From Bacteroidales bacterium (GTDB taxonomy: Bacteria; Bacteroidota; Bacteroidia; Bacteroidales; F082), in contig CAAGIO010000019.1 in assembly GCA_900769945.1 (NCBI GenBank), positions 16,414 to 80,413 of the forward strand: 64,000 nucleotides of DNA, given 5' to 3'. Under the pieces are notes generated by a model. That model had not been told where the DNA came from. It saw only the letters and a list, made by a program, of their open reading frames with translations, and searched no databases. Both the position numbers and the translations under genes were made by a program. Shown in pieces: positions 31,526 through 50,312 of the stretch (positions are counted from its first letter, which is position 1; every line of letters starts with the position of its first letter).

Positions 31526-32359
31526 ATGTTTTACAAGATGCGCATTACCATTGTAAAATTGTTGTTGACGCTTGTAGTCCTGCTCTCTGTCAACACCTTT
31601 GTCAAAGGGCAGGACGATGGCTCTCCTCTCGACACCATCGACTTCACCGATAACACCCTCGTCGATAGCGAGCTGCTGCGTGTCGCCATATCCGATTTCT
31701 TGACAAACGCACAGGACTTCTCCCAGCCGGAGCAACGCCAGATGTATGACCTTATTCTCGCAGCCGATAACGTGCTGTCAAGATGTGTCTCTTCTTTCGA
31801 GATGTATAGGTTCGTCTATCATTTCATGATCACCGGATTCACAGAAATGGGAGCTACCCTCGTGGTGGATTATATGATGCGTATGCCTTATATCGAGTAT
31901 CTTGACGCTACAAAGGAACAACGTGCCGAGCTCTATGACCTCGCCGAACAGTTCAATAGGGTCAAAATAGGCTCTGTCGCACCGGATATTAATGCGTTGA
32001 CTATCAAAGGTGATACCTTCTCACTTCATGATGCTGAATCGCATTTTTTTGTGATTCTGTTCTGGTCTTACTCTTGCCCTCATTGTAGGGAAATGTTAAA
32101 AGAACTTGCTTCCCTGTCAAAAAACGACGATGTTATGATAATAACGGTCAATGTGTCGGGGAAGAAGAAAAAGGTTAATAGGCTGTTGCGCTCTCTGAAG
32201 GTCAACGGCATAAACATTTGTGACGGCCTTGGCTGGGAATCGCCCGTCGTTGGTGATTTCGCCGTCAATATGACGCCATCGCTGTTCGTTTTAGATAATG
32301 ATAAAAAAATTGTCGCCCGTCCATTCGGGATAAATGAAATAATGGAGATTGTTAGGTGA
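31526..32359 (+). CDS. TlpA-like thiol-disulfide oxidoreductase (thioredoxin fold), secreted
   Basis: Signal or anchor sequence. C-terminal thioredoxin domain with a CxxC active site (ILFWSYSCPHCREMLKEL). Confidence 0.65.
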   Translation: MFYKMRITIVKLLLTLVVLLSVNTFVKGQDDGSPLDTIDFTDNTLVDSELLRVAISDFLTNAQDFSQPEQRQMYDLILAADNVLSRCVSSFEMYRFVYHFMITGFTEMGATLVVDYMMRMPYIEYLDATKEQRAELYDLAEQFNRVKIGSVAPDINALTIKGDTFSLHDAESHFFVILFWSYSCPHCREMLKELASLSKNDDVMIITVNVSGKKKKVNRLLRSLKVNGINICDGLGWESPVVGDFAVNMTPSLFVLDNDKKIVARPFGINEIMEIVR

Positions 32360-35238
32360 TGAAAAAAGTATTCCTTTCGTTTTTTGTGTTATTCTTGTCG
32401 TTTGTAGTAAAGTCGCAGAATGAGGAGGACCGATGGGTTGATTCGGTGTATAACTCTCTGACCTTGGAGCAGCGTGTAGGCCAGCTTATTAATGCAAGGG
32501 CGAACTATCCGAATAAGATGTGCCCACAGGATTTGTTCGAACTCGTTGAGAATTATAATATTGGCGGTATCACCTTCTTCCGTACCGATGCTCTGCCGCT
32601 TCTGCAGCAGACCAATGCGTTGCAGTCGTTGGCACAGACGCCAATGATGGTGAGTATCGATGGGGAATGGGGTCTCGGTATGCGCCTCAACGATGCTATC
32701 TCTTACCCGTATCAGATGACACTCGGCGCAGTGCAGAATGTGCAGCTTATCGGCGAGATGGGAAGACAAATTGCCGAGCAGTGCCGCCGCCTTGGGATAA
32801 ATGTCGATTTCGCCCCCGATATTGACGTCAACAACGAGCCTCATAACCCCGTGATAGGCATGAGGAGCTTCGGTGAAGACCCCTTCAATGTGGCAGTGCG
32901 TGGCACCCAATACGCCTTGGCTCTTCAGAATAATAACGTCCTGCCTTCGATGAAACATTTCCCCGGACATGGCGACACAAAGACTGACTCGCACGAGACC
33001 CTGCCCGTGGTTCATAAGCCTTTAGAAGAGGTACGTAAGACGGAGCTGTTCCCTTTTCAATACCTTATTAATAAAGGTGTTAACTCCGCCATGGTCGGGC
33101 ATCTCTATATCCCGGCAGTGGAGCCGATACCAAACACCTCGTCCTCAATGTCGTATAACGTTGTGACAGAGCTACTTAAAAAAGACCTCGGCTTCGATGG
33201 CATTGTCTTCACTGATGCTCTCGAGATGAAAGGTGCTTATAATAATATCCATACTGATAGTGTGGGACTTCACGCCCTCCTCGCTGGAAATGACGTGCTT
33301 CTGATGCCATTGAACCCTATTAAGACTATTGAGATAATCGTCGGCGCAGCTGATGACAGCGTCGTGTATCGCAGAATAGAGGAGAGCTGTAGGAAAATCC
33401 TTAGAATCAAGTACCGCATTGGTCTTCACCATTACTCGCCCCAGATAGAGCTCGGCCTTGATAACGATTTGAAACAGTCGAGATACTATAACCTTCGCCA
33501 ACAGCTTTATAATGAGGCTGTTACAATGCTGAAAAATAATAACGAGGCTCTCCCGCTCGATAAGGAGCTGAGTTATGCCGTGGTGACTTTCAGTGATGAC
33601 GATAACGTGGCGCGACAGTTGAAAAAACAAGGATACCTCGTAAAGTCTATTATGGTGGGTAAAGATGTCTCCGCAAGAGATTGTAATATGATTGTCAAAG
33701 AGTTAAAGGCATACGACTGCGTGATTGTGAATATTCAGAACACCTCGATATTCGCTTCAAAAGCTTATGGCGTAACAGATAATATGAAACGTTTTGTGAA
33801 GGAGTGTAGTAAGCATAAAAACCTGATTTTCAATCTCTTTGCCTGCCCTTACGCATTAGATATGTTCGATTTTAAGAAAGAACCGCAAGCAGTAATCATT
33901 GGTTATGAGGATAAGCAAGATGCCGTCAATGCTGTTGTTGATGTCATGCTTGGCAAAATCAATCCAAAGGGAAAGCTGCCTGTCACTGTGAATAAAAAAT
34001 ATAGGATTGGCTGTGGCATGGGTTTTCCGGGTATGCTTACTCCTGAGACCTTGCCTGTGTCGTTGATAAACAACGATTTCACGCGCAAGATAGACTCTAT
34101 CGCTCTTAATGGAATAGAAATTAAGGCTTTCCCCGGCTGCCAGATTTTTGCAATGAAAGATGGTAATGTCATCTATGACAAATGCTTCGGGAGCTTCACC
34201 TATTCCGGCGAACATGAGGTGCGTGCCGATGACGTCTATGACCTTGCCTCTCTCACCAAGGTCTTCGCAAGCACTTTGGCGATAATGAAACTCTATGATG
34301 AAGGTAAAATCAGCCTCGAATCTCGTCTAAAAGACTTTTTCCCTTATCTTAATTCAACAGAGAAGGGAGATTTGCGCCTGATTGAGATTATGACACATCA
34401 GGCTGGCCTAACACCTTGGATTCCAATATATACCGTGACGATGAAGGACGGAAAACCTAACCCGGAACTGTTCAGGTCCTTCATTGATGAGGATCATACA
34501 GTGAAAGTGGCTGACAAGATGTTTATAGAGAATGACTTCAGTTATTTCATCTTCGATACTGTGATGAGGTCAAGCATGATTGAAAAGAAGTACAAATACA
34601 GTGATTTGGGATTTTATTTCTTCCCTGCTATTGTTGAAATGGTTACTAATCAGCCGTTTGAGACTTTTCTGTATGAGAATTTCTATAAGCCGTTGAACCT
34701 TAGTCATATCTTTTTCAAGCCATTGAAGCATATCGCATTAGAGAAGATCGCTCCAACCGAGAACGACACGGTCTTCAGGATGCAGCAGCTTCAGGGCTAC
34801 GTTCATGACCAGTGCGCTGCTTTGCTTGGCGGAGTGTCGGGGCATGCCGGCTTGTTTGGCAACGCCCGTGACATCGCTGTGCTTCTCCAGCTCCTTCTCG
34901 ATGATGGATTCGCTAATAACAGGCAGTTCTTGTCAAAACACACTATTAATAAATTCACCTCTGCACCGTTTGCCGACAATATGAATCGCCGTGGCATAGG
35001 GTTCGACAAGCCGGAGATAGACCCTTCCGTGGAATATTACACCCCTGCCTTGCAGTCCTCGCCCCGAAGCTTCGGTCATACAGGCTTCACCGGCACCTTC
35101 GCTTGGGCAGACCCCGATAATGACCTTATTGTGGTCTTCCTGTCCAACAGGGTCTTCCCCGACGCATCAAATAACCTGATTTCCAAACTCGATATCAGGA
35201 CAAATATCCATGAACTGTTCTATGAGGCCGTCAAATAA
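32356..35238 (+). CDS. Bifunctional GH3 beta-N-acetylhexosaminidase (NagZ-like) / serine beta-lactamase-family hydrolase, secreted
   Basis: Signal peptide. The GH3 NagZ motif is KHFPGHGDTKTDSH. The C-terminal part has an SxxK active site (DLASLTKVF) and HTGFTG (a KTG-like motif) of penicillin-binding/beta-lactamase-fold serine hydrolases. 960 aa. The start overlaps the upstream stop. Confidence 0.8.
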   Translation: MMKKVFLSFFVLFLSFVVKSQNEEDRWVDSVYNSLTLEQRVGQLINARANYPNKMCPQDLFELVENYNIGGITFFRTDALPLLQQTNALQSLAQTPMMVSIDGEWGLGMRLNDAISYPYQMTLGAVQNVQLIGEMGRQIAEQCRRLGINVDFAPDIDVNNEPHNPVIGMRSFGEDPFNVAVRGTQYALALQNNNVLPSMKHFPGHGDTKTDSHETLPVVHKPLEEVRKTELFPFQYLINKGVNSAMVGHLYIPAVEPIPNTSSSMSYNVVTELLKKDLGFDGIVFTDALEMKGAYNNIHTDSVGLHALLAGNDVLLMPLNPIKTIEIIVGAADDSVVYRRIEESCRKILRIKYRIGLHHYSPQIELGLDNDLKQSRYYNLRQQLYNEAVTMLKNNNEALPLDKELSYAVVTFSDDDNVARQLKKQGYLVKSIMVGKDVSARDCNMIVKELKAYDCVIVNIQNTSIFASKAYGVTDNMKRFVKECSKHKNLIFNLFACPYALDMFDFKKEPQAVIIGYEDKQDAVNAVVDVMLGKINPKGKLPVTVNKKYRIGCGMGFPGMLTPETLPVSLINNDFTRKIDSIALNGIEIKAFPGCQIFAMKDGNVIYDKCFGSFTYSGEHEVRADDVYDLASLTKVFASTLAIMKLYDEGKISLESRLKDFFPYLNSTEKGDLRLIEIMTHQAGLTPWIPIYTVTMKDGKPNPELFRSFIDEDHTVKVADKMFIENDFSYFIFDTVMRSSMIEKKYKYSDLGFYFFPAIVEMVTNQPFETFLYENFYKPLNLSHIFFKPLKHIALEKIAPTENDTVFRMQQLQGYVHDQCAALLGGVSGHAGLFGNARDIAVLLQLLLDDGFANNRQFLSKHTINKFTSAPFADNMNRRGIGFDKPEIDPSVEYYTPALQSSPRSFGHTGFTGTFAWADPDNDLIVVFLSNRVFPDASNNLISKLDIRTNIHELFYEAVK

Positions 35239-35242
35239 CCCG

Positions 35243-35833
35243 TCAGTTGTCATTCGGGTTGAGAGGAAACTTTGACCAAAGCTGGTATTGCTTCCCCGTG
35301 GCTTTCGTGAACGTCTCCCACATCACCTTCGGATTCGTCATGGTGATGGCTTTAGTGCTCATCTTGCCTACAATCCATGAGTTGCGCCTTAACTCATCTC
35401 TCAGCTGTCCGGCGTCCCAACCGCAGTATCCTAAGAAAAACCTGATGTCAAATCTTGTGACTAATCCGCATCTAATCAACGACTTGATGACGTTGAAGTT
35501 GTTGCTCCAATACAGTCCCTTGCATATCTCCGTCGATTCCGGAACCATGTTGCCCAAGGTGTGTGTGAAAAAGACATTGTCGTTCTTCACAGGACCTCCA
35601 ATATAAACGTCGGCATCGAACATAGGAAAGTCATCTACCACATCGTTGATTGTCACAGGTATCCGCTTGTTGATTATTATCCCGCATGTGCCGTCTTCCT
35701 CGTTATGGTCCATTATCAACACCACCGCACGACTGAAATACATGTCAAGCAAAAATGGCTCCGATAGCAATACGTCCCCAGGGTTTACCTCTAATGTGTT
35801 ACTTTTTATCTGAAATAATTCTTCTTTATCCAT
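35243..35833 (-). CDS. YqgE/AlgH-family protein (UPF0301/DUF179)
   Basis: LLSEPFLLDMYFSRAVVLIMDHNEEDGTCGIIINK resembles the YqgE consensus. The start was chosen at MDKEEL, because the upstream extension of the ORF is AT-rich leader sequence. Confidence 0.7.
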   Translation of the reverse strand: MDKEELFQIKSNTLEVNPGDVLLSEPFLLDMYFSRAVVLIMDHNEEDGTCGIIINKRIPVTINDVVDDFPMFDADVYIGGPVKNDNVFFTHTLGNMVPESTEICKGLYWSNNFNVIKSLIRCGLVTRFDIRFFLGYCGWDAGQLRDELRRNSWIVGKMSTKAITMTNPKVMWETFTKATGKQYQLWSKFPLNPNDN

Positions 35834-35881
35834 CTTTTGTGACGAAAATTTTTTTTCTGACAATGATAATAATACATAAAT

Positions 35882-37279
35882 ATGCGTAATTTTGTGCGCA
35901 AAATCTTTAATTCTCAAATAATGTCAAACCAAGCAAAATTTGATTCACTTAGAGAGACATTCTCGTTTTTTTGCTTCCAAAAATACAATTATTTTGTTGA
36001 AAATGGCGATTTTTTTGCCGAATTTTCCTTTTCTTTAGATGATAAGGTGATTTTCAAGCCCAAATTCACCATCCCGGCAAGGAGTTTTTATCAATGGGAT
36101 AGCCTCCCGAAGCATCTGCTGGAACTCCTCGTCTTCAATATCGGAATGATTGAGCTTGTTAGCTATTGGAAGATAGCATGCCCGCGTAAGGTTGTTGTGA
36201 AGCCCTTCTCTCTTGACGAGAATCAGGTGAGATGGTGGAAGAAACTGTATTTCAATGGTCTCGGAGAGTTTTTCTATGTTAACGGCATTGTCACTAACAT
36301 CGATGACTTCATGGAAATAGAGAGTTCGGGTGAGAGCTCGCGTATCACTGATGGCTGTGGCGTTATCTTGTCTGACACCACTTTGGTGCCTGTCGGCGGA
36401 GGAAAGGACTCCGTTGTGTCTCTTGAGATTCTGAAAGCCGGGAGGCCGGTCATACCCTTCATCATCAACCCTCGTGGCGCTACACGTGATTGTGTGGCTA
36501 CATCTGGATTCTCGGAGGACCGTACCGCAGTGGTGCACCGTTCCTTGGACCCTACTATGTTGAAAATGAACGCCGAGGGTTATCTTAATGGGCATACGCC
36601 TTTCTCAGCCCTGCTCGCTTTTTATTCTTTACTCGTCGCCTTCGCCTCTGGCAGCAGTTTCATTGCGCTGTCAAACGAGTCGTCAGCAAACGAACCTACC
36701 GTGCCTGATACCGAAATAAACCACCAATATAGTAAGTCGTTGGCTTTCGAGAATGATTTCAGACGCTATGTGAAATTATATATTAATCCTGATATTCAAT
36801 ATTTTAGCTTCCTGCGCCCTTTGAATGAACTTCAAATAGCAATGCTTTTCTCAAAATTAGATGAAGACTTTAGAACGGTGTTCAAAAGCTGTAATGTCGG
36901 CTCAAAAACTGACTCGTGGTGCGGAAAATGCCCGAAATGCCTCTTCACTTGGCTGGCGATGTCACCTTTTATTAATAGGAAGAATCTGACATCGGTGTTC
37001 GGGAAGGACTTGCTGAAAGACGTCGCCTTGAAACCGATTCTCGACGAACTTGACGGCGAAACGGAAGTGAAACCCTTTGAATGTGTTGGAACAGTAGGGG
37101 AGGTGAGAGCTTGTGTTAACCATATCTTGCTGAACGATAACGATTTAGATGGCTCCTTGTTAAAAGATACCGCCATTTTTAATTCTCCTTCGGTAGATGA
37201 TTTTCTTTCTCAATTTGATGTGAATAATAATCTTCCTGATAGTTTTGCTTTATTATTAAAGGAGGCCTTATATGGTTAG
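35882..37279 (+). CDS. PP-loop ATP-pyrophosphatase-like protein; candidate UDP-MurNAc-L-Ala-L-Glu epimerase (MurL-like)
   Basis: PVGGGKDS is an SGGxDS-type PP-loop, and there is a C-terminal CGKCPKC. 465 aa. The 3' end overlaps by 8 nt the start of a MurD-like ligase gene, which is the gene context described for murL/murD2. The assignment is an inference, not a search result. Confidence 0.45.
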   Translation: MRNFVRKIFNSQIMSNQAKFDSLRETFSFFCFQKYNYFVENGDFFAEFSFSLDDKVIFKPKFTIPARSFYQWDSLPKHLLELLVFNIGMIELVSYWKIACPRKVVVKPFSLDENQVRWWKKLYFNGLGEFFYVNGIVTNIDDFMEIESSGESSRITDGCGVILSDTTLVPVGGGKDSVVSLEILKAGRPVIPFIINPRGATRDCVATSGFSEDRTAVVHRSLDPTMLKMNAEGYLNGHTPFSALLAFYSLLVAFASGSSFIALSNESSANEPTVPDTEINHQYSKSLAFENDFRRYVKLYINPDIQYFSFLRPLNELQIAMLFSKLDEDFRTVFKSCNVGSKTDSWCGKCPKCLFTWLAMSPFINRKNLTSVFGKDLLKDVALKPILDELDGETEVKPFECVGTVGEVRACVNHILLNDNDLDGSLLKDTAIFNSPSVDDFLSQFDVNNNLPDSFALLLKEALYG

Positions 37280-38540
37280 TGAAAATTCTATCTTTGAACG
37301 CCTGAAAGGGAAGAAGGTTCTTGTCTTAGGCTTTGGCAGGGAAGGCCGCTCGTCTTTCTCTTTTATTAACAATAATATCCCTGTGGCAGAGTTGGCTGTC
37401 GCAGATAGAAATGCCGCGGCCCTCACTGATGTTCCCGTCACCTCGTTCTCTGGCGAACACTATTTAGATGCCTTGAATGATTACGATGTGGTTATTAAGA
37501 CTCCCGGTATCTCATTGAAAGACATTGATGTTGATATTAGTAAGATAACGTCGCAAACAGATTTGTTCCTTGAAGCGTTTCATTCTCAGATAATTGGCGT
37601 CACTGGCACAAAAGGGAAAAGCACTACATCTTCCCTGATACATCATCTTCTTCAGTCGTCGGGAAGGAAGTCTTTTCTCGTTGGAAATATCGGTGTTCCG
37701 GTTTTTGAGATAATGGACAAGGTGACAAGCGATTCTATCATCGTATTTGAACTCTCGGCGCATCAGCTTCAGTTTATCCACCGTAGCCCTCATGTCGGTA
37801 TCTTGTTGAATATCTTTGAGGAGCATCTTGACCATTTCGGGACCTTCGAGGCGTATTCAGAAGCGAAGAAGAATATTATTGCAAAGATGACTGCTGACGA
37901 TTGGGCTGTTACAAGCGGCGAGCTCATTGGCAGCGTGTCCCATATTCCTCATATTGTGAATTATGAGTCGTATCCTCTTGATGAAGACTTCGGTGAGATG
38001 CCATTGAAGGGAGAGCATAATAGGAATAACGTCAGGGCGGCCTTGTGTGCCTGCCATTCGTTCGGTGTCCCCGTCGTTGAACTTCTGCCCTCGCTGAAAA
38101 CGTTTAAGCCGTTGGAACACAGGCAGGAACCCGTCGGTACTTTCCACGGAGTATCGTTCTATAATGATAGCATCTCCACTATCCCGCAGGCTACTATTGC
38201 CGCCAACGAGACGATAAAAGATGTCACATTCCTCCTTCTCGGTGGCTATGACCGTAATATTGATTATTCTCCTTTAGTCGAGTATTTGTTGAAAAAGAAG
38301 GTGCCGCATCTTTTGTTCACAGGAAAGGCTGGGCAGCGTATCATGATGATGCTCAAGGAGAAACATTATGATGGCGATGTCGATGTCTTTGAAAACCTTG
38401 ATGAGGCCTTCGACATTATCAGGAGGAAAGCGTCGGTCGGAGACGTGTGCCTTCTTTCTCCGGCGGCAGCGAGCTATGATAGATATAGGAACTTTGAAGA
38501 AAGAGGCTCCGTGTTCAAGTCGTTAGCCCGCGCCTTCTGA
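37272..38540 (+). CDS. Mur-ligase family protein, MurD-like; candidate UDP-MurNAc-L-Ala--L-Glu ligase MurD2
   Basis: N-terminal Rossmann-like VLVLGFGREGRS, the Mur ligase P-loop GVTGTKGKSTT, and a C-terminal Mur ligase domain. 422 aa. It lies outside any dcw cluster and is translationally coupled to the PP-loop gene. Confidence 0.7.
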   Translation: MVSENSIFERLKGKKVLVLGFGREGRSSFSFINNNIPVAELAVADRNAAALTDVPVTSFSGEHYLDALNDYDVVIKTPGISLKDIDVDISKITSQTDLFLEAFHSQIIGVTGTKGKSTTSSLIHHLLQSSGRKSFLVGNIGVPVFEIMDKVTSDSIIVFELSAHQLQFIHRSPHVGILLNIFEEHLDHFGTFEAYSEAKKNIIAKMTADDWAVTSGELIGSVSHIPHIVNYESYPLDEDFGEMPLKGEHNRNNVRAALCACHSFGVPVVELLPSLKTFKPLEHRQEPVGTFHGVSFYNDSISTIPQATIAANETIKDVTFLLLGGYDRNIDYSPLVEYLLKKKVPHLLFTGKAGQRIMMMLKEKHYDGDVDVFENLDEAFDIIRRKASVGDVCLLSPAAASYDRYRNFEERGSVFKSLARAF

Positions 38541-44018: not shown

Positions 44019-47000
44019 CTATCTCTCAACGATGACCTTCACGTTCTTTACAAAACTGTTGTTGTATGTTCTGACGATGTATGCGCCATTTCTTAAGTCG
44101 TGATTGATGATGTTGTCACCGGTTGAAATAGTCTGTCTGATTACAGGCTGACCAGCGATGTTATATACCGCCATCTCAAGACTGCCGTTTGTGTTGTTCT
44201 TGACAATGAATGAGTTGCGAACGCTTATTATTACTAAGTCTGACTCGCTTTCTTCATCGATGCTTAAGGTCTCTTTTACTTCACCTGATAACGACACCAT
44301 GGTTTCTACTCCTGAGGCAGCAATAGCCACTTCACTTTCGTATGTGTTAACATCAAGGGCGTTAAGTCTTACATAGATTGTAGTAGGTTCGATAGTGCCG
44401 TTTTCAAATGGCAACTCAATGCTTGTCGAGAATGTTGTCTCGTCTAATGACATCTCGAAATCGTTCTGAGTGTTGATGTTGAGTGTTATCATGCCGCTGT
44501 CGGAGCCGTCTTCGCCAACGAGGTTTCCGGCTGTGAGAACGAATTGCTGTACCTCTGAAGGTCCATCACCATAGAAATACTCGAAACCGTTGAGCGAGTT
44601 TGGTGTTACGGTGATGTACGGGTCAGTGCTGAGGCTTGCATAAAGCATGATGTCGTCAACTTCCCAAGCTGCTGCTCCATCTGTAGCGCTGCTTGTATAT
44701 TTGAATGCGATATAGCAAATCATGCCGGAGAAAGCGTTAAGTGAGATCTCTCCTGACTCAACCCACTCATAGTTTCCTTCTGACATGTTGAATGTCAACG
44801 GCTGCCATGTTGCTGATGAAATGTCTTGACCATCGAAGTCGTTTGAGAAGAATAACTCAAGAGCCGGTCCCTCGAACTTGGTGGCGTTCATAAATGACAA
44901 GATGACATTCTGTCCAGCATATTCCGAAAGGTTGAACTCCGGCGAGATGCACCATTGCTCATTATCTACATCGTCACCATAACCATTTGCATTGGCATAT
45001 TTGTTGCCTGCGTAAGTAGCAATTGTCCATGGCTTGTTGCCGTTTACTGTGACAAACGACCAGCCGTTCATCTCACCTTCCCAATCTTGACTGAATATCA
45101 CGTCAACATCGGTGATGACATTGTAGTAAGCTGATGCCACGTTGCTGTCGGTATAACCGTCCTTTATTGCTATTGCCTTGATAGTCATCTCTGAATCGAT
45201 ATGTATTGCCTCGGTATAAACCTCTGATTCTGAAGAAGGCTCGCTGCCGTCAGTCGTATAGTAGATGGTGGCGTCTTCTGTCGCGCAAGCAATCTCAACG
45301 TCTATCTCGTTGTAATATGTTCCTGATGCCATGCTGAATGTTGGGGTTGCGACTGTTGGTGTCACTGAGCCGCCTTGTACGAACAGGTCGAGGAAGAAGT
45401 TGTAGTCTGATGAAGCGATGTTTGTCGTTGAATATGCGCCGAACTTGTTTGAAGCGTTCATGGCGATACCTCTTGTGTCGTAGTCGGTGTTTCTGAAGAC
45501 GAAGCCTGAGTAGTTAGGAATCATAGCGTTAGCCTCTGAAGTCTCGTATGCAACAGTCCATTGTGAGTATTGGTTGCCAGCGAAGTTGGTGCTGCTTCCT
45601 GCGTATCCGAGGGCATCGCCATTGGTGTTGGTGAGTGTGATAAGCCCGTCTTCAACAGTGACGTTCCAGAGATATGTGGCGGCATCGTCGGCTATTGCAG
45701 AAGGCAGTTTCTCAATGCCACCGTTGATTTCTGATGAGAATAACACGCCGTCTGGCTTGCCTGACACCACCGCCGGCATTGCATAATAACCGTTGCCTGT
45801 CGTCTCATCATAACGTGCCGCGAGTATTACTTGTGAGCCATTGGCAAGCTCGTTGACGGAATAAATCTTATTCCAATCTTCGCCCTGCTCAACAACGTTT
45901 CCACTTAATGAAACAGTAATTTCATCGAGTTGTGAGTCGATGCTGACGCTGCCGTCGTAGGTGTTTACAGCGAGGTCTGCTGCCATTCTGAAATACACTG
46001 TCTGTTCAATGCTTCCGGCAACAGGGGTGAGGGTTATTGTAGATTGTGCCACGAAAGCCTCTCCTGATGTGAGTGACATCTCGAATGATGTGCCGGCAAG
46101 TGTTATGACGACGTCTTCATTCAGGTTGATAGCTGAAATGTTGACGGATTGCTCTGATGATGGACCATTGCCCTCTGTATAGCTGAAGTTGAGGCTTGTA
46201 GGGGTGACGTTGATGTTAGGGGCAGAGGTGAAGCCGAGAAGGATGATGTCGTCAATCTCCCAGCTTGCCGCTTCTGTCTCTGTTGAGGTGTATTTGAAAC
46301 CGATATGGCAGTTGTCTCCGCTATATCCGTCCAAAGAAATGACACCCGACTCAACCCATTCGTAGTTACCTGCTGATAATGTGAATGATAATGGCTGCCA
46401 TGTCGCTGTGGCAGGATTCTGCCCGTCATAATTGTTTGAAATCATGAGTTCAAGTGCCGGACCGGTGAATTTTGTAGCGTTCATGAATGTCAATGAGACG
46501 TTGCTGTAGCTGTCGATGTTGAAGGCAGGGGAGATGCACCATTGCTCGTTTACGCCGCCGTTATAACCGTTTGCGTTAGCGTATTTGTTGTTGTTGTATG
46601 ACGCTATTGTCCATGCATTGCTGCCCTCTACTGATACGAACGTCCAACCGTTCATTTCTCCTTCCCAATCCTGACTGAAGATTGTAGTGGCTCCAAGGAT
46701 GATGGTGTATTCCGCTGTGGCGATATTGCTGTTAACGAATCCATCTTTTATTGCTAATGCCTTGATAGTCATGCTTTCTTCAACAACGATAGGCTCTGAA
46801 TATACTGATGAGCTTGTTGTAGGCTCTGTTCCATCTGTAGTGAAGTAGATGGTGGCGTCAGGTGTTGCAGTGGCGATAGTAACTGTCTGTGCCTCAAAGT
46901 ATGTGCCGGCTTCTGGTGTGAATGTAGGCATTGCAACGGTAGGTGTGCCGCCTGCCTTAACAAACATGTCGATGTAGAAGTTGTAGTTGGCAGCGTTAGC

Positions 47001-50000
47001 TCCTGTCATATTTGTCTTGGAATAGGCACCATAGCTGTGATAGTTGCTGTTGATAGCGAATGCCCTGCCGTCTTTGTTGTGGTTAGTAATAACGAATGCG
47101 CCGTAGCTTGCAACCATTGCCGCCTCATCTGAAACGCCGTATTCAATGCTCCACTCTGTGTTGTCACCTCCTGTAGCGAAGTCGGTGCCGCTGCCACCGT
47201 AACCAAGGACATCACCGTTGTTGTTGGTGAAGATGAAACCGTTGGCTGTTGCCGTAGCTGTCCATGCGTATGTGTCTTCATTGTCAAGAACCTCACTTGA
47301 TACCGTCTCGCCATTGTCGCCTTCCTCACTTGTGAATAAGAATCCCGCCGGCTTGCCCGATGTAGTGGCTGTCATGGCATAATATGAGTTCGTCTCCTCA
47401 TTGTGTCGTGCCGCAAAGATGATTTGTGAACCATCTTCCACACCCGAAATGTCACTGATACGCACATATTCAGGGTCGGTAGCTGCTCCCTGCTCTTTGA
47501 CCTCTCCTGTCACATGAACGTAAACGTCCTCAACTCCTTCTGATTCAAGTCGTAATGAGTCGGCATATACTCCAAGTGGAAGGTCTGCCTTGAGGCGTAC
47601 ATATATGCTGATGTCGTGGAAACAACCGTATGCGCCGTTAACCTTGATTCTGTTTTGTGACACGAAGTTGTCATCTCCTGTTGATGAAATCTCAAAGTTC
47701 TCCGAACGATATATCTTTAACGCTCCGTTGAGGTATGAGCCTCCAACACTCAATACTTTTGATTCAGATGGTCCGTTTCCAACCTCGTATTTTATGCCTG
47801 TAAGGTTTGTAGTGCTTGTGATGATTGTTGGAACATGCTGGTACTGAATGTCTTCTGCGCTAAATACTCGCATCTGTAATGTGTTGTAACAGCTGATGAT
47901 ACCTGTAACGGTGACCATGTCTGTCGTCATCATTCCGTTGACAACAGGCATCTTGTATATGTTAAGGGCGTTATCACCTTGGCTGATGACGGTGTTGCCG
48001 TTGTTGTTGATGTCACCAACAATAGCGTCTGTAATCTGAACGCGTGTCGATTGTAACATGTTGTCACCGGCGAAGTCAGCGTTGATTTCCTCTATCGTCT
48101 TGACTGCTAAAGGAAGCTCGTTGTTACTTGATGTGATGATTATTGTGCCGTTATTTGCGTTAACGCCAGTCAACTCAACAAGTCCTTTGTAGTCGCTTCT
48201 CTTTCCGTATGCCTTTACCTCGTCTCCGATAGCAAGTCCTGCAGGGGCAGCGTTCTTGTCAACGTAAACTACAATAGCTGCAGTGGCGTCTTGTACGTAG
48301 ATGTTACGTCCATCGATAAAGGTTACAATGCCGCTAACACAAGCGTACTCGTTGACATCTAATGCTCTAACAGTTGCGATGGCAGTTATTTCCGGGAATG
48401 TGTATGTTGCCGTAGCGATATTGCTGTTGTTCATTCCTGCCATCACCGCCATGGCTTTGATTGTTGTGGTCTCGTCTATGTTGATGGCGTCGGTATATAC
48501 GTTGCTTGCTGTTGTCGGCTCGCTGCCATCTGTTGTGTAATAGATGGTTGCGCCTTCTGTTGCACTGCTTATCGCAACAGCCTGTGGAGTGATGTATGTC
48601 CCTGCGGCAGGTGTGAATGTCGGTATTGCTGCTGACGATGCTTCTGTTACTGTTCCGGAAGCACTGATGGTCGCTGTTGTTTCTCCATTCTTTGCCGTTA
48701 TGCTTCCTGAATATGTGCCTTCAGCAAGGTCTGCCTTCATTCTTGCATAAACGATGGCATTCACCGTACCGTCTGTCGCTGCTACTGAAATGGTGTCGCT
48801 GAAAATACCGCTGTCTGTAGCACACAACTCAAATCCTTCCGATGCTGCTATCTCGATGCTCCCGTTGATGTATTCGCCGAAAACATTGATTGCCTCAGCT
48901 GTCGATGGACCGTTAAGCTCTTGGTATTCAAATGTTAATGATGCTGGTGATAATGTTATCTGTCCGGGTACAAGTGTGATGTCTCCTTCTTGTGCAACGC
49001 GAATCTGTACTGTGTTGAAACAACTGATGACGCCGATGACGTTAACATTATTTCCTTCAGAGATCTCACTTAATGCAGGTACTTTGTAGATGATGGTGCT
49101 GCTTTCTCCTTGTGACAGAGTGGTGTTCCCTGTAGTGTTTATCTCTCCTATCACTGCATTCTGTATCATTACGCGTGTTGATTGGAGGCTGTTGCTTCCT
49201 TCAAAATCGCTGAGTATCTCTGATATGGTCTTTACAGCTAATGGGAGTTCGTTGCCGCTCGATATTATTGAGAATTGTGCCTCATCGCTTCCATTGATGC
49301 CTGACAACTCTATGAGTCCTTTGTAAACAGCTTTCTTTCCGTATGCTGACACTTTGTCGCCAATCATTAGCTCTGATGGCACTGTGTTGCTGTTCAAGAA
49401 CAAATCGATACCGGCTGTCTCGTCCTGAATGTAGATGTTCCTACCGTCGATGAATGTGACAACGCCTTCTACTAATGCGTACTCGTTTGTGGCAAGTGCC
49501 TTGGCCTCGGCAATCGTTGATTTCTCAATCTTGGTGAATGTCGCTGATGCCACATCGCTTTCTGTAAAGCCTTCTTTATACGCCTTTGCCATCACTGTTG
49601 TGGTTGACGTTATTGTTAATGGCTCGGAATAGACGCTGCCTGCATCTGTAGGCTCAGTCCCATCAAGAGTGTAATATATTGTGGCTCCGTCTGTTGCACA
49701 TGTTATCGTCACTTCTTGTGTGTTGAAGAATGTGCCTCCGTTAGGAGTGATAGATGGTGTTGACACCGTCTCAATGGTTCCGCCGCCACCGCCTTCTACC
49801 TTCTTGTAAAGCTGAACCGGCTGCTGGCCAGTGTATGACGTTGACTTGAAATAACGGAATCGCATCTGGTTTGATGCATTGTTGAACCTCATCACTGATG
49901 TGTTCGATGTTATCAGCACCTCTGATTCTGAATAAGTCAAGGTGTTCAGCACTTCGGTGGTTCCAAAATTTAGTTTGTTACTATTTTTAGTGCCGGAAAT

Positions 50001-50312
50001 GTATTTGCCGTCGTTAGTGCTGCCATTGACTTTGATTGAATAGCCTCCAGTCATTGGGGCAATGGTGATTGTCACTGCATCTGTAGCGGTGATTTTGCCA
50101 TCGCTGATTGCGTATTGCGAATATCCGTTGGCGGCATCAAGACCATTCCACGAGTATGCGTCACCCGCATCTTCATACACGAGAAGATATTCACCCGACC
50201 AGTCCGCTGGTTCTGATGTGACCTTCTCGTAAGTTGTCTGACCAAATGCAATGTTGGCATTTGCCATGAGCAGCATGATGGCTGCAATCAAGAAAGTAAA
50301 CTTACGTCTCAT
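44019..50312 (-). CDS. Giant (2097 aa) T9SS-secreted multidomain surface protein with four chitobiase/hexosaminidase C-terminal-type domains, two choice-of-anchor-J-like domains and other duplicated modules
   Basis: Signal peptide MRRKFTFLIAAIMLLMANANIAFGQ. The C-terminal ~75 aa (AVYNIAGQPVIRQTISTGDNIINHDLRNGAYIVRTYNNSFVKNVKVIVER) is a T9SS sorting domain. Four TFTPxAGTY...ATIYYTTDGSEPT modules are present, and FSQDWEGEMNGW...EQWCISP occurs twice. Confidence 0.8.
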   Translation of the reverse strand: MRRKFTFLIAAIMLLMANANIAFGQTTYEKVTSEPADWSGEYLLVYEDAGDAYSWNGLDAANGYSQYAISDGKITATDAVTITIAPMTGGYSIKVNGSTNDGKYISGTKNSNKLNFGTTEVLNTLTYSESEVLITSNTSVMRFNNASNQMRFRYFKSTSYTGQQPVQLYKKVEGGGGGTIETVSTPSITPNGGTFFNTQEVTITCATDGATIYYTLDGTEPTDAGSVYSEPLTITSTTTVMAKAYKEGFTESDVASATFTKIEKSTIAEAKALATNEYALVEGVVTFIDGRNIYIQDETAGIDLFLNSNTVPSELMIGDKVSAYGKKAVYKGLIELSGINGSDEAQFSIISSGNELPLAVKTISEILSDFEGSNSLQSTRVMIQNAVIGEINTTGNTTLSQGESSTIIYKVPALSEISEGNNVNVIGVISCFNTVQIRVAQEGDITLVPGQITLSPASLTFEYQELNGPSTAEAINVFGEYINGSIEIAASEGFELCATDSGIFSDTISVAATDGTVNAIVYARMKADLAEGTYSGSITAKNGETTATISASGTVTEASSAAIPTFTPAAGTYITPQAVAISSATEGATIYYTTDGSEPTTASNVYTDAINIDETTTIKAMAVMAGMNNSNIATATYTFPEITAIATVRALDVNEYACVSGIVTFIDGRNIYVQDATAAIVVYVDKNAAPAGLAIGDEVKAYGKRSDYKGLVELTGVNANNGTIIITSSNNELPLAVKTIEEINADFAGDNMLQSTRVQITDAIVGDINNNGNTVISQGDNALNIYKMPVVNGMMTTDMVTVTGIISCYNTLQMRVFSAEDIQYQHVPTIITSTTNLTGIKYEVGNGPSESKVLSVGGSYLNGALKIYRSENFEISSTGDDNFVSQNRIKVNGAYGCFHDISIYVRLKADLPLGVYADSLRLESEGVEDVYVHVTGEVKEQGAATDPEYVRISDISGVEDGSQIIFAARHNEETNSYYAMTATTSGKPAGFLFTSEEGDNGETVSSEVLDNEDTYAWTATATANGFIFTNNNGDVLGYGGSGTDFATGGDNTEWSIEYGVSDEAAMVASYGAFVITNHNKDGRAFAINSNYHSYGAYSKTNMTGANAANYNFYIDMFVKAGGTPTVAMPTFTPEAGTYFEAQTVTIATATPDATIYFTTDGTEPTTSSSVYSEPIVVEESMTIKALAIKDGFVNSNIATAEYTIILGATTIFSQDWEGEMNGWTFVSVEGSNAWTIASYNNNKYANANGYNGGVNEQWCISPAFNIDSYSNVSLTFMNATKFTGPALELMISNNYDGQNPATATWQPLSFTLSAGNYEWVESGVISLDGYSGDNCHIGFKYTSTETEAASWEIDDIILLGFTSAPNINVTPTSLNFSYTEGNGPSSEQSVNISAINLNEDVVITLAGTSFEMSLTSGEAFVAQSTITLTPVAGSIEQTVYFRMAADLAVNTYDGSVSIDSQLDEITVSLSGNVVEQGEDWNKIYSVNELANGSQVILAARYDETTGNGYYAMPAVVSGKPDGVLFSSEINGGIEKLPSAIADDAATYLWNVTVEDGLITLTNTNGDALGYAGSSTNFAGNQYSQWTVAYETSEANAMIPNYSGFVFRNTDYDTRGIAMNASNKFGAYSTTNIASSDYNFFLDLFVQGGSVTPTVATPTFSMASGTYYNEIDVEIACATEDATIYYTTDGSEPSSESEVYTEAIHIDSEMTIKAIAIKDGYTDSNVASAYYNVITDVDVIFSQDWEGEMNGWSFVTVNGNKPWTIATYAGNKYANANGYGDDVDNEQWCISPEFNLSEYAGQNVILSFMNATKFEGPALELFFSNDFDGQDISSATWQPLTFNMSEGNYEWVESGEISLNAFSGMICYIAFKYTSSATDGAAAWEVDDIMLYASLSTDPYITVTPNSLNGFEYFYGDGPSEVQQFVLTAGNLVGEDGSDSGMITLNINTQNDFEMSLDETTFSTSIELPFENGTIEPTTIYVRLNALDVNTYESEVAIAASGVETMVSLSGEVKETLSIDEESESDLVIISVRNSFIVKNNTNGSLEMAVYNIAGQPVIRQTISTGDNIINHDLRNGAYIVRTYNNSFVKNVKVIVER
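44250..49770 (-). repeat. Intragenic tandem duplications inside the giant gene: two A-type units of about 375 aa and two B-type units of about 530 aa (about 1.59-kb DNA period)
   Basis: DNA at about 44700-45100 is near-identical to about 46290-46690, for example ...gactcaacccactcatagtttcc... against ...gactcaacccattcgtagttacc.... At protein level the paired blocks NEYALVEGVVTFIDGRNIYIQD/NEYACVSGIVTFIDGRNIYVQD and GKPAGFLFTSE/GKPDGVLFSSE are duplicated. Confidence 0.75.

Follow-up and report, generated by a model that had tools for sequence, protein, structure and literature searches.

A translationally coupled murL–murD2-like gene pair in Bacteroidales, a probable route to the D-glutamate of peptidoglycan

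The 64,000-nucleotide stretch analysed here, referred to as the window, belongs to contig CAAGIO010000019.1 (positions 16,414 to 80,413, forward strand) of the Bacteroidales assembly GCA_900769945.1 (GTDB lineage F082), which comes from gut or rumen. It carries a gene for a PP-loop protein followed by a gene for a MurD-family ligase, and comparisons of protein sequence indicate that the two very probably function as MurL and MurD2. The MurL/MurD2 pathway has been described before (Feng et al. 2017; EC 6.3.2.53 and EC 5.1.1.23) and reviewed (PMC8788868, PMC5808125). Published work describes MurL as an enzyme that 'lacks known conserved domains', needs ATP and Mg, releases AMP and acts only from L to D. 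Its published range comprises Xanthomonadales, a few Alphaproteobacteria and rare actinomycetes ('relatively few bacterial genera'), and the organisms concerned lack D-Glu-forming genes. No report of MurL/MurD2 in Bacteroidota was found in the literature searched, and Bacteroidota would constitute a phylum-level addition to this pathway.

The first gene of the pair is homologous to murL. The references were a murL–murD pair of Xanthomonas sacchari and the MurL model of NCBIfam for Xanthomonadales, which stood in for the X. oryzae proteins. The NCBIfam MurL model NF041275 matched the window protein with an E-value of 3.7e-73 (246.5 bits; protein residues 25-414 against model positions 5-392 of 447), and the annotated X. 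sacchari MurL was 32% identical over 389 aa (BLASTP, E 2e-60). Similarity to MurL, which the preliminary description of this DNA had set beforehand as a test of its proposal, is therefore present. Both proteins have the same two-domain architecture and nearly the same length (451 aa in Xanthomonas, 452 aa in the window), with homology over about 85% of it. All 33 residues invariant over the Bacteroidota, Xanthomonas and Pseudonocardia sequences are present in the window protein. It additionally contains a conserved cysteine, C87, that is absent from Xanthomonas MurL. The Pfam families PF26299 (MurL_N) and PF26298 (MurL_epimerase_C) are precomputed on the 99%-identical protein P0001, the 80%-identical protein P0002 and all 120 listed homologues; local Pfam profiles run on the window protein itself returned neither model, only a sub-threshold match to DUF6395. 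Close homologues number in the thousands, all in uncultured Bacteroidales. A MurL with 80% identity is encoded by Ca. Limimorpha sp. (GCA_051875555.1). Pfam thus already captures the Bacteroidota proteins, all of which NCBI names 'hypothetical protein' because their scores fall below the clade-specific NCBIfam cutoff.

Several motifs of MurL are conserved well beyond Bacteroidota. The GGGKDS core of the PP-loop is identical in all 80 Bacteroidota MurL sequences analysed and in Xanthomonas MurL, and reads GGGRDS in a Pseudonocardia paralogue. Four cysteines (C324, C334, C337 and C340, spaced C-x9-C-x2-C-x2-C and lying within SCNVGSKTDSWCGKCPKC) are invariant in all sequences compared and probably bind Zn. 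C388 is the sole universally conserved cysteine outside this cluster (80 of 80 Bacteroidota, Xanthomonas and Pseudonocardia), which makes it a candidate for a catalytic role in proton transfer. Within the PP-loop, G, D and S are likewise invariant across these three sets, as are Y82, K84, R207, H225, N252, H268, K272 and E303. From the invariant positions we short-listed Y82, K84, H225, H268, K272, E387 and C388 as relevant to the mechanism.

No solved structure of any MurL relative was retrieved by PDB sequence search. An AlphaFold2 model of the protein (predicted local distance difference test score 93.3) found its top structural matches in Cap9, of the type IV cyclic-oligonucleotide-based anti-phage signalling system (CBASS), and in QueC. 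The model thus assigns to MurL a QueC-type PP-loop fold, in line with the earlier guess of a PP-loop enzyme and compatible with AMP-forming chemistry; we did not encounter this fold assignment in the literature searched, and it appears to be new. QueC carries out ATP-dependent steps on a carboxylic acid and is defined by an SGGxDS loop and the Zn motif C(x)8CxxCxxC; the survey of the QueC family in which this is laid out makes no mention of MurL (PMC13329287). In the window protein the corresponding motifs are GGGKDS and C(x)9CxxCxxC, and, unlike QueC, it has an additional N-terminal domain of 145 aa. PF06508 (QueC) gave no match to MurL at E <= 0.1. The outcome proposed for MurL is epimerization followed by hydrolysis back to the acid, whereas enzymes of the QueC fold yield an amide or a nitrile. 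MurL is therefore QueC-like in its ATP step, yet lies outside the QueC family.

The second gene encodes a member of the MurD family. The TIGR01087 (murD) profile scored 311.8 bits, above its cutoff of 211.95; murC came second among the families with 83 bits, and the best PDB matches were all MurD. The earlier assignment as MurD-like accordingly held against MurC, MurE, MurF, Mpl and FolC. The ligase has the three domains of the family and shares with E. coli MurD (EC 6.3.2.9) the catalytic residues K115, N138, E157, H183 and K198. It departs from that enzyme at the positions that matter for the amino acid added. Specificity for L-Glu is determined in X. oryzae MurD2 by Glu197 and Arg358, the counterparts of E. 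coli MurD Asp182 and Lys348: changing both, as in E197D/R358K, yields a D-Glu ligase, and K319T in E. coli MurD leads to acceptance of L-Glu (PMC8788868). A three-way alignment placed Glu, Ile and Arg in the window ligase where E. coli MurD has Asp182, Lys319 and Lys348, matching X. sacchari MurD2. Lysine occupies position 319 in the canonical MurD proteins compared (E. coli, with NDSKAT, Streptococcus agalactiae and Thermotoga maritima). The window ligase thus has neither the Asp182/Lys319/Lys348 set of the D-Glu site nor the position of canonical murD between mraY and ftsW, its gene being coupled instead to that of a probable epimerase. The presence of both mutagenesis-tested MurD2 residues supports the MurD2-type ligase suggested previously.

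The two genes also belong together in other genomes. A scan of species-representative genomes gave at least 592 stretches with a MurL relative, and the best 80 were analysed. Nearly all of these are Bacteroidota, many from animal gut and rumen, and they include metagenome-assembled genomes (MAGs) of Bacteroidales from gut and rumen, Lentimicrobiaceae and Marinilabiliales, as well as MAGs with an assignment to Draconibacterium orientale or Marinifilum. The ligase gene lies directly downstream of murL in 62 of the 80 loci and is fused to it in another 10 (L009, L026, L030, L034, L049, L051, L053, L055, L062 and L063). As the two are adjacent or fused in 72 of 80 other genomes, the pairing is far above chance. 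Among 65 full-length linked or fused ligases, the position of Asp182 is Glu in 64, and Ile and Arg occupy the other two positions in all 65. The order is that of X. sacchari, where murL comes first and its end overlaps 'murD' (MurD2) by 20 nt; the overlap in the window is 8 nt.

Searched exhaustively, the 50%-identity cluster representatives yielded 2547 MurL-family clusters. About one-third of the top 150 representatives are proteins of roughly 900 aa or more. All nine long proteins searched with Pfam contained a Mur-ligase part, which was MurD-like in seven or eight, and either domain order occurred. The fusions listed are P0122, P0124, P0131, P0214, P0181 and P0126; in P0181 the ligase has an N-domain of the MurC/MurE type, and P0126 is a triple fusion of MurL, ligase and an M20 peptidase. 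Fusion of MurL with a ligase implies that the two act in consecutive steps on one substrate.

The preliminary description had seen in the ligase a second MurD, and this part of it gained no support from comparison with relatives. Regions of the division and cell wall (dcw) cluster were fetched with the MurG of a MurL-bearing MAG (L014) and came from related Bacteroidales with 70-72% identical MurG. The order was mraZ-rsmH-ftsL-ftsI-murE-mraY-X-ftsW-murG-murC-ftsQ-ftsA-ftsZ in all ten clusters that cover the murD slot (L088-L091 and L099-L104). In each, X, the occupant of the murD slot, is an open reading frame (ORF) of 170-188 aa with a Mur_ligase_C domain only; the gap between mraY and ftsW measures 549-622 nt in four clusters (L088-L091). 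The homology of X is confined to the C-terminal domain of MurD (E-values as low as 7e-18, covering E. coli MurD residues 287-437), and the UDP-binding and ATPase domains are missing, so that the functional MurD of these genomes must be encoded elsewhere. Purifying selection acts on X as it does on the neighbouring genes (dN/dS 0.06-0.30, dS being close to saturation). The JGI label of X as a full 'UDP-N-acetylmuramoylalanine--D-glutamate ligase' is a mislabel. We found no mention of a MurD relic limited to the C-terminal domain in Bacteroidales dcw clusters in the literature searched, and it appears to be a new observation.

The MurL–ligase pair occurs in the same clade as the relic-bearing clusters. 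It is likely that the window ligase is the sole full-length MurD of its lineage, as in Xanthomonas. The pair is probably also the only route to D-Glu there, with nothing to supplement it, because the murD slot of related dcw clusters holds only the relic. The broader idea that MurL/MurD2 wholly replaced MurI and canonical MurD in a large part of Bacteroidales, with the relic kept in a new role, is speculative and at present rather doubtful.

In one Bacteroidales sub-lineage a lone murG was observed a few kb 3' of the murL–ligase pair, beside rpsA and with no dcw cluster, at L014:15014-16207, L086:10001-11173 and L087:10001-11098; a sister lineage (L092) shares the synteny but not the murG. A MAG labelled 'Bacillota bacterium' (L082, JAQXGK010000073.1) contains a Bacteroidota-like MurL–ligase pair, with 45% identity to the window MurL, adjoining an isolated murC; the explanation is either faulty binning or labelling, or horizontal transfer. 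Since the murG of L014 and the murC of L082 are isolated genes, a dcw context around MurL was rejected at both loci.

Several observations weigh against a MurL/MurD2 function, and some of them would fit an ordinary MurD, adding D-Glu and relocated from the dcw cluster, beside a PP-loop protein with another task, such as muropeptide modification or recycling, amidation or the activation of some other carboxylate. Pipelines annotate the ligase as MurD, and its score exceeds the murD equivalog cutoff. Overall, it stands about as near to E. coli MurD as to MurD2: identity is 30.6% to X. sacchari MurD2 (478 aa, against 422 aa in the window) and 30.2% to E. coli MurD (BLASTP), and a hidden Markov model built from 66 Bacteroidota ligases (the 65 and that of the window) scored 252 bits for X. 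sacchari MurD2 and 235 bits for E. coli MurD, pairwise bit scores varying with search direction. Orthology to MurD2 is thus argued from a few residues and from linkage. One of these residues, Arg at position 348, is also found in the D-Glu MurD of S. agalactiae and in that of S. mutans (PMC8788868), and Pro433 and Phe435 of X. oryzae MurD2 are replaced by Ala and Tyr in the ligase. The latter mismatch is not decisive, because the P433A and F435L mutants of MurD2 retained wild-type specificity (PMC8788868). A conserved upstream gene for a NagZ-like/PBP4B-like fusion hints at cell-wall turnover, and QueC-fold enzymes are known for amides and nitriles, not epimers. The NF041275 score, moreover, is below the equivalog cutoff of 700 bits of a model named for and tuned to Xanthomonadales, which rules out automatic naming but not homology. 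Against an ordinary MurD, the partner protein is homologous along its length to a biochemically defined epimerase clade and keeps all residues invariant in that clade; Glu182, Ile319 and Arg348 occur together in 64 of 65 linked ligases, as in Xanthomonas MurD2; and repeated fusions tie the two enzymes to one substrate. We therefore consider a relocated ordinary MurD very unlikely. The least probable alternative, to which we give almost no credence, is that the PP-loop protein is a 7-deazaguanine or anti-phage enzyme of the QueC, Cap9 or QatC type that neighbours the ligase by chance. Its structural matches point that way, but neither gene nor any neighbour had a PADLOC match, the nearby genes included no CD-NTase, Cap10, QatABD or queDEF, and the protein combines a MurL_N domain with MurL-specific motifs common to Xanthomonas MurL and with linkage to a ligase in most loci. 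A role of MurL in defence or deazaguanine metabolism is effectively refuted by this context, the motifs and the missing Pfam QueC and PADLOC matches.

A different concern is that the pair is indeed MurL/MurD2 but redundant, with a canonical D-Glu MurD and a glutamate racemase also present and the operon supplementary or used conditionally. The window is silent on the rest of the chromosome, and no assembly with both the relic and MurL was found by locus-tag matching, sample co-occurrence and the examination of one candidate MurL. All ten related dcw clusters, on the other hand, have no full-length murD, the strict conservation of the catalytic and specificity residues in 65-80 species speaks for an essential and not an accessory role, and the published MurD2/MurL organisms have no D-Glu-forming genes. 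Redundancy is thus improbable, though less so than an ordinary MurD. It must also be considered that MurL/MurD2 activity in Bacteroidota is deduced from sequence and that the MurL family may not always serve this role. Eight of the 80 loci (L059, L064, L067, L068, L075, L077, L078 and L079, all rumen Bacteroidales) have MurL with no adjacent ligase; these proteins keep all invariant residues, and unrelated genes lie downstream (FKBP/BamJ-like, TrkA/TrkH, RmlD and others). Lone MurL-family genes with no Mur ligase nearby are also carried by the Pseudonocardia alni plasmid pPaSha1 (L085:5905-7305) and two other Pseudonocardia plasmids. Their products are 31-32% identical, with motifs intact except for the PP-loop Lys-to-Arg change, and the family may have functions beyond the epimerization of peptidoglycan precursors.

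Taken as MurL and MurD2, the pair would form a translationally coupled operon that supplies D-Glu at position 2 of the stem peptide with no need for free D-glutamate. The ligase would add L-Glu to the cell-wall precursor, and MurL would then flip it to D-Glu. Homology to characterized MurL, the fold and the conserved motifs suggest how the second step may proceed. MurL would bind the ligase product, and its QueC-type PP-loop domain would adenylate the α-carboxylate of the terminal L-Glu with release of pyrophosphate; adenylation of the α-carboxyl group has been proposed, though not demonstrated, in published work. The acyl-adenylate would acidify the α-proton, and a conserved base or acid, for which Cys388 of the KPFECVG motif is the prime candidate, would invert the centre.

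The features of the locus are collected in Table 1. Most of the preliminary reading of the DNA is confirmed at this level: the two ORFs (35882-37279, 465 aa as first called, and 37272-38540, 422 aa, both on the forward strand of the window's ORF list), their 8-nt overlap, read directly from the junction letters, the PP-loop, CGKCPKC (as WCGKCPKC), P-loop and N-terminal Rossmann motifs, and the location outside a dcw cluster. Among the scanned ORFs of the window there were no dcw, murI or D-amino-acid aminotransferase genes. The start of the first gene is the exception. Although the ORF stands, ATG 35921, which gives 452 aa, is probably the true start, because most close homologues listed are 450-460 aa long, P0002 (452 aa), the nearest named homologue, begins with MSNQAK, and the candidate -7 box TAATTTTG falls downstream of ATG 35882. 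Residues of MurL are numbered here on the 452-aa protein.

Table 1. Features of the murL–ligase locus in the window, and the murD-slot ORFs of related dcw clusters.
Feature	Position	Strand	Basis or remark
Candidate Bacteroidetes-type -7 promoter box TAATTTTG	35887..35894	+	In the DUF179–murL gap; weak evidence
MurL gene, 452 aa	35921..37279	+	NF041275; X. sacchari MurL (BLASTP); Pfam domains on relatives
MurL_N domain, about residues 1-145	35921..36355	+	Invariant SYWK motif at 36161-36172
PP-loop variant PVGGGKDS	36389..36412	+	ATP pyrophosphatase phosphate-binding loop, in the domain superposing on QueC/Cap9
Four-Cys cluster S-C-N-x8-W-C-x2-C-x-K-C	36887..36940	+	Predicted Zn site
KPFECVG with C388	37070..37090	+	Candidate proton-transfer residue
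Coupling junction AGGAGGCCTTATATGGTTAG	37260..37279	+	AGGAGG 37260-37265; ligase ATG 37272-37274; MurL stop TAG 37277-37279
MurD-family ligase, 422 aa	37272..38540	+	TIGR01087; Pfam Mur_ligase_M/C, weak MurD-like_N match
Rossmann motif GFGREG	37329..37346	+	N-terminal in the ligase
P-loop GVTGTKGKSTT	37596..37628	+	Ligase
FEEHLDH	37815..37835	+	Glu = E. coli Asp182 = MurD2 Glu197; alignment; E in 64/65 linked ligases
NDSISTI	38163..38183	+	Ile = E. coli Lys319; NDSIST in X. sacchari MurD2; I in 65/65 linked ligases
GGYDRN	38241..38258	+	Arg = E. coli Lys348 = MurD2 Arg358; alignment; R in 65/65 linked ligases
murD-slot ORF X	L088:8193-8756; L089:8187-8747; L090:8235-8747; L091:8152-8688		Mur_ligase_C

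Shine-Dalgarno sequences are little used by Bacteroidota. The perfect AGGAGG that stands 6 nt ahead of the ligase ATG, within the murL coding sequence, is conspicuous in such a genome. Upstream, an 87-nt gap separates murL from a divergent DUF179/YqgE gene that starts at 35833. The motif TAATTTTG, which we take to be the Bacteroides -7 consensus, has 50 occurrences in the window where 34 are expected, often immediately 5' of genes. A scan for sigma-70 promoters and terminators was uninformative for a Bacteroidota genome, its 'terminators' falling within coding sequence. The window has a GC content of about 46% and encodes PorX of the type IX secretion system and proteins with Por sorting domains.

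The order redoxin, GH3/beta-lactamase fusion, DUF179, MurL and ligase is conserved within the same Bacteroidales clade. In the window (31526-35917), and also in L001, L086, L092 and L093, the genes ahead of murL encode a thioredoxin-like redoxin, a 960-aa fusion and the divergent DUF179/YqgE protein. The fusion joins a GH3 NagZ-like beta-N-acetylhexosaminidase to a PBP4B/AmpH-like domain of the beta-lactamase fold, and this synteny is a possible link of murL to cell-wall turnover. On the other side, a gene on the reverse strand (44019-50312) encodes a 2097-aa repetitive secreted protein with a homologue containing repeated CHB_HEX_C/Fn3-associated domains; it is kept beside the locus in Ca. 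Limimorpha (L001). In the reference organism X. sacchari, a 508-kb 'plasmid' (L084, NZ_CP010410.1) carries murL, murD, a gene for a bifunctional aspartate kinase/diaminopimelate decarboxylase and ssb, and looks like a chromosomal segment or chromid rather than a plasmid.

Annotation pipelines currently label these ligases as D-Glu-adding MurD (EC 6.3.2.9) and the epimerase as 'hypothetical', so that metabolic reconstructions of these uncultured Bacteroidales would wrongly predict either D-Glu auxotrophy or a missing step. The QueC-type PP-loop and four-Cys fold, together with the list of invariant residues, provide a concrete and testable mechanism for MurL, and the natural MurL–ligase fusions offer constructs that can be used directly in work on structure and channelling. 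The presence of MurL relatives in at least 592 species-representative genomes alters both the selectivity argument and the picture of which bacteria make D-Glu and how. Were the replacement of MurI and canonical MurD wholesale, it would span abundant uncultured lineages of gut and rumen Bacteroidales, and the relic might then, for instance, act as an adaptor that connects the relocated MurD2/MurL pair with the other Mur/divisome components, or sense UDP-MurNAc-peptide.

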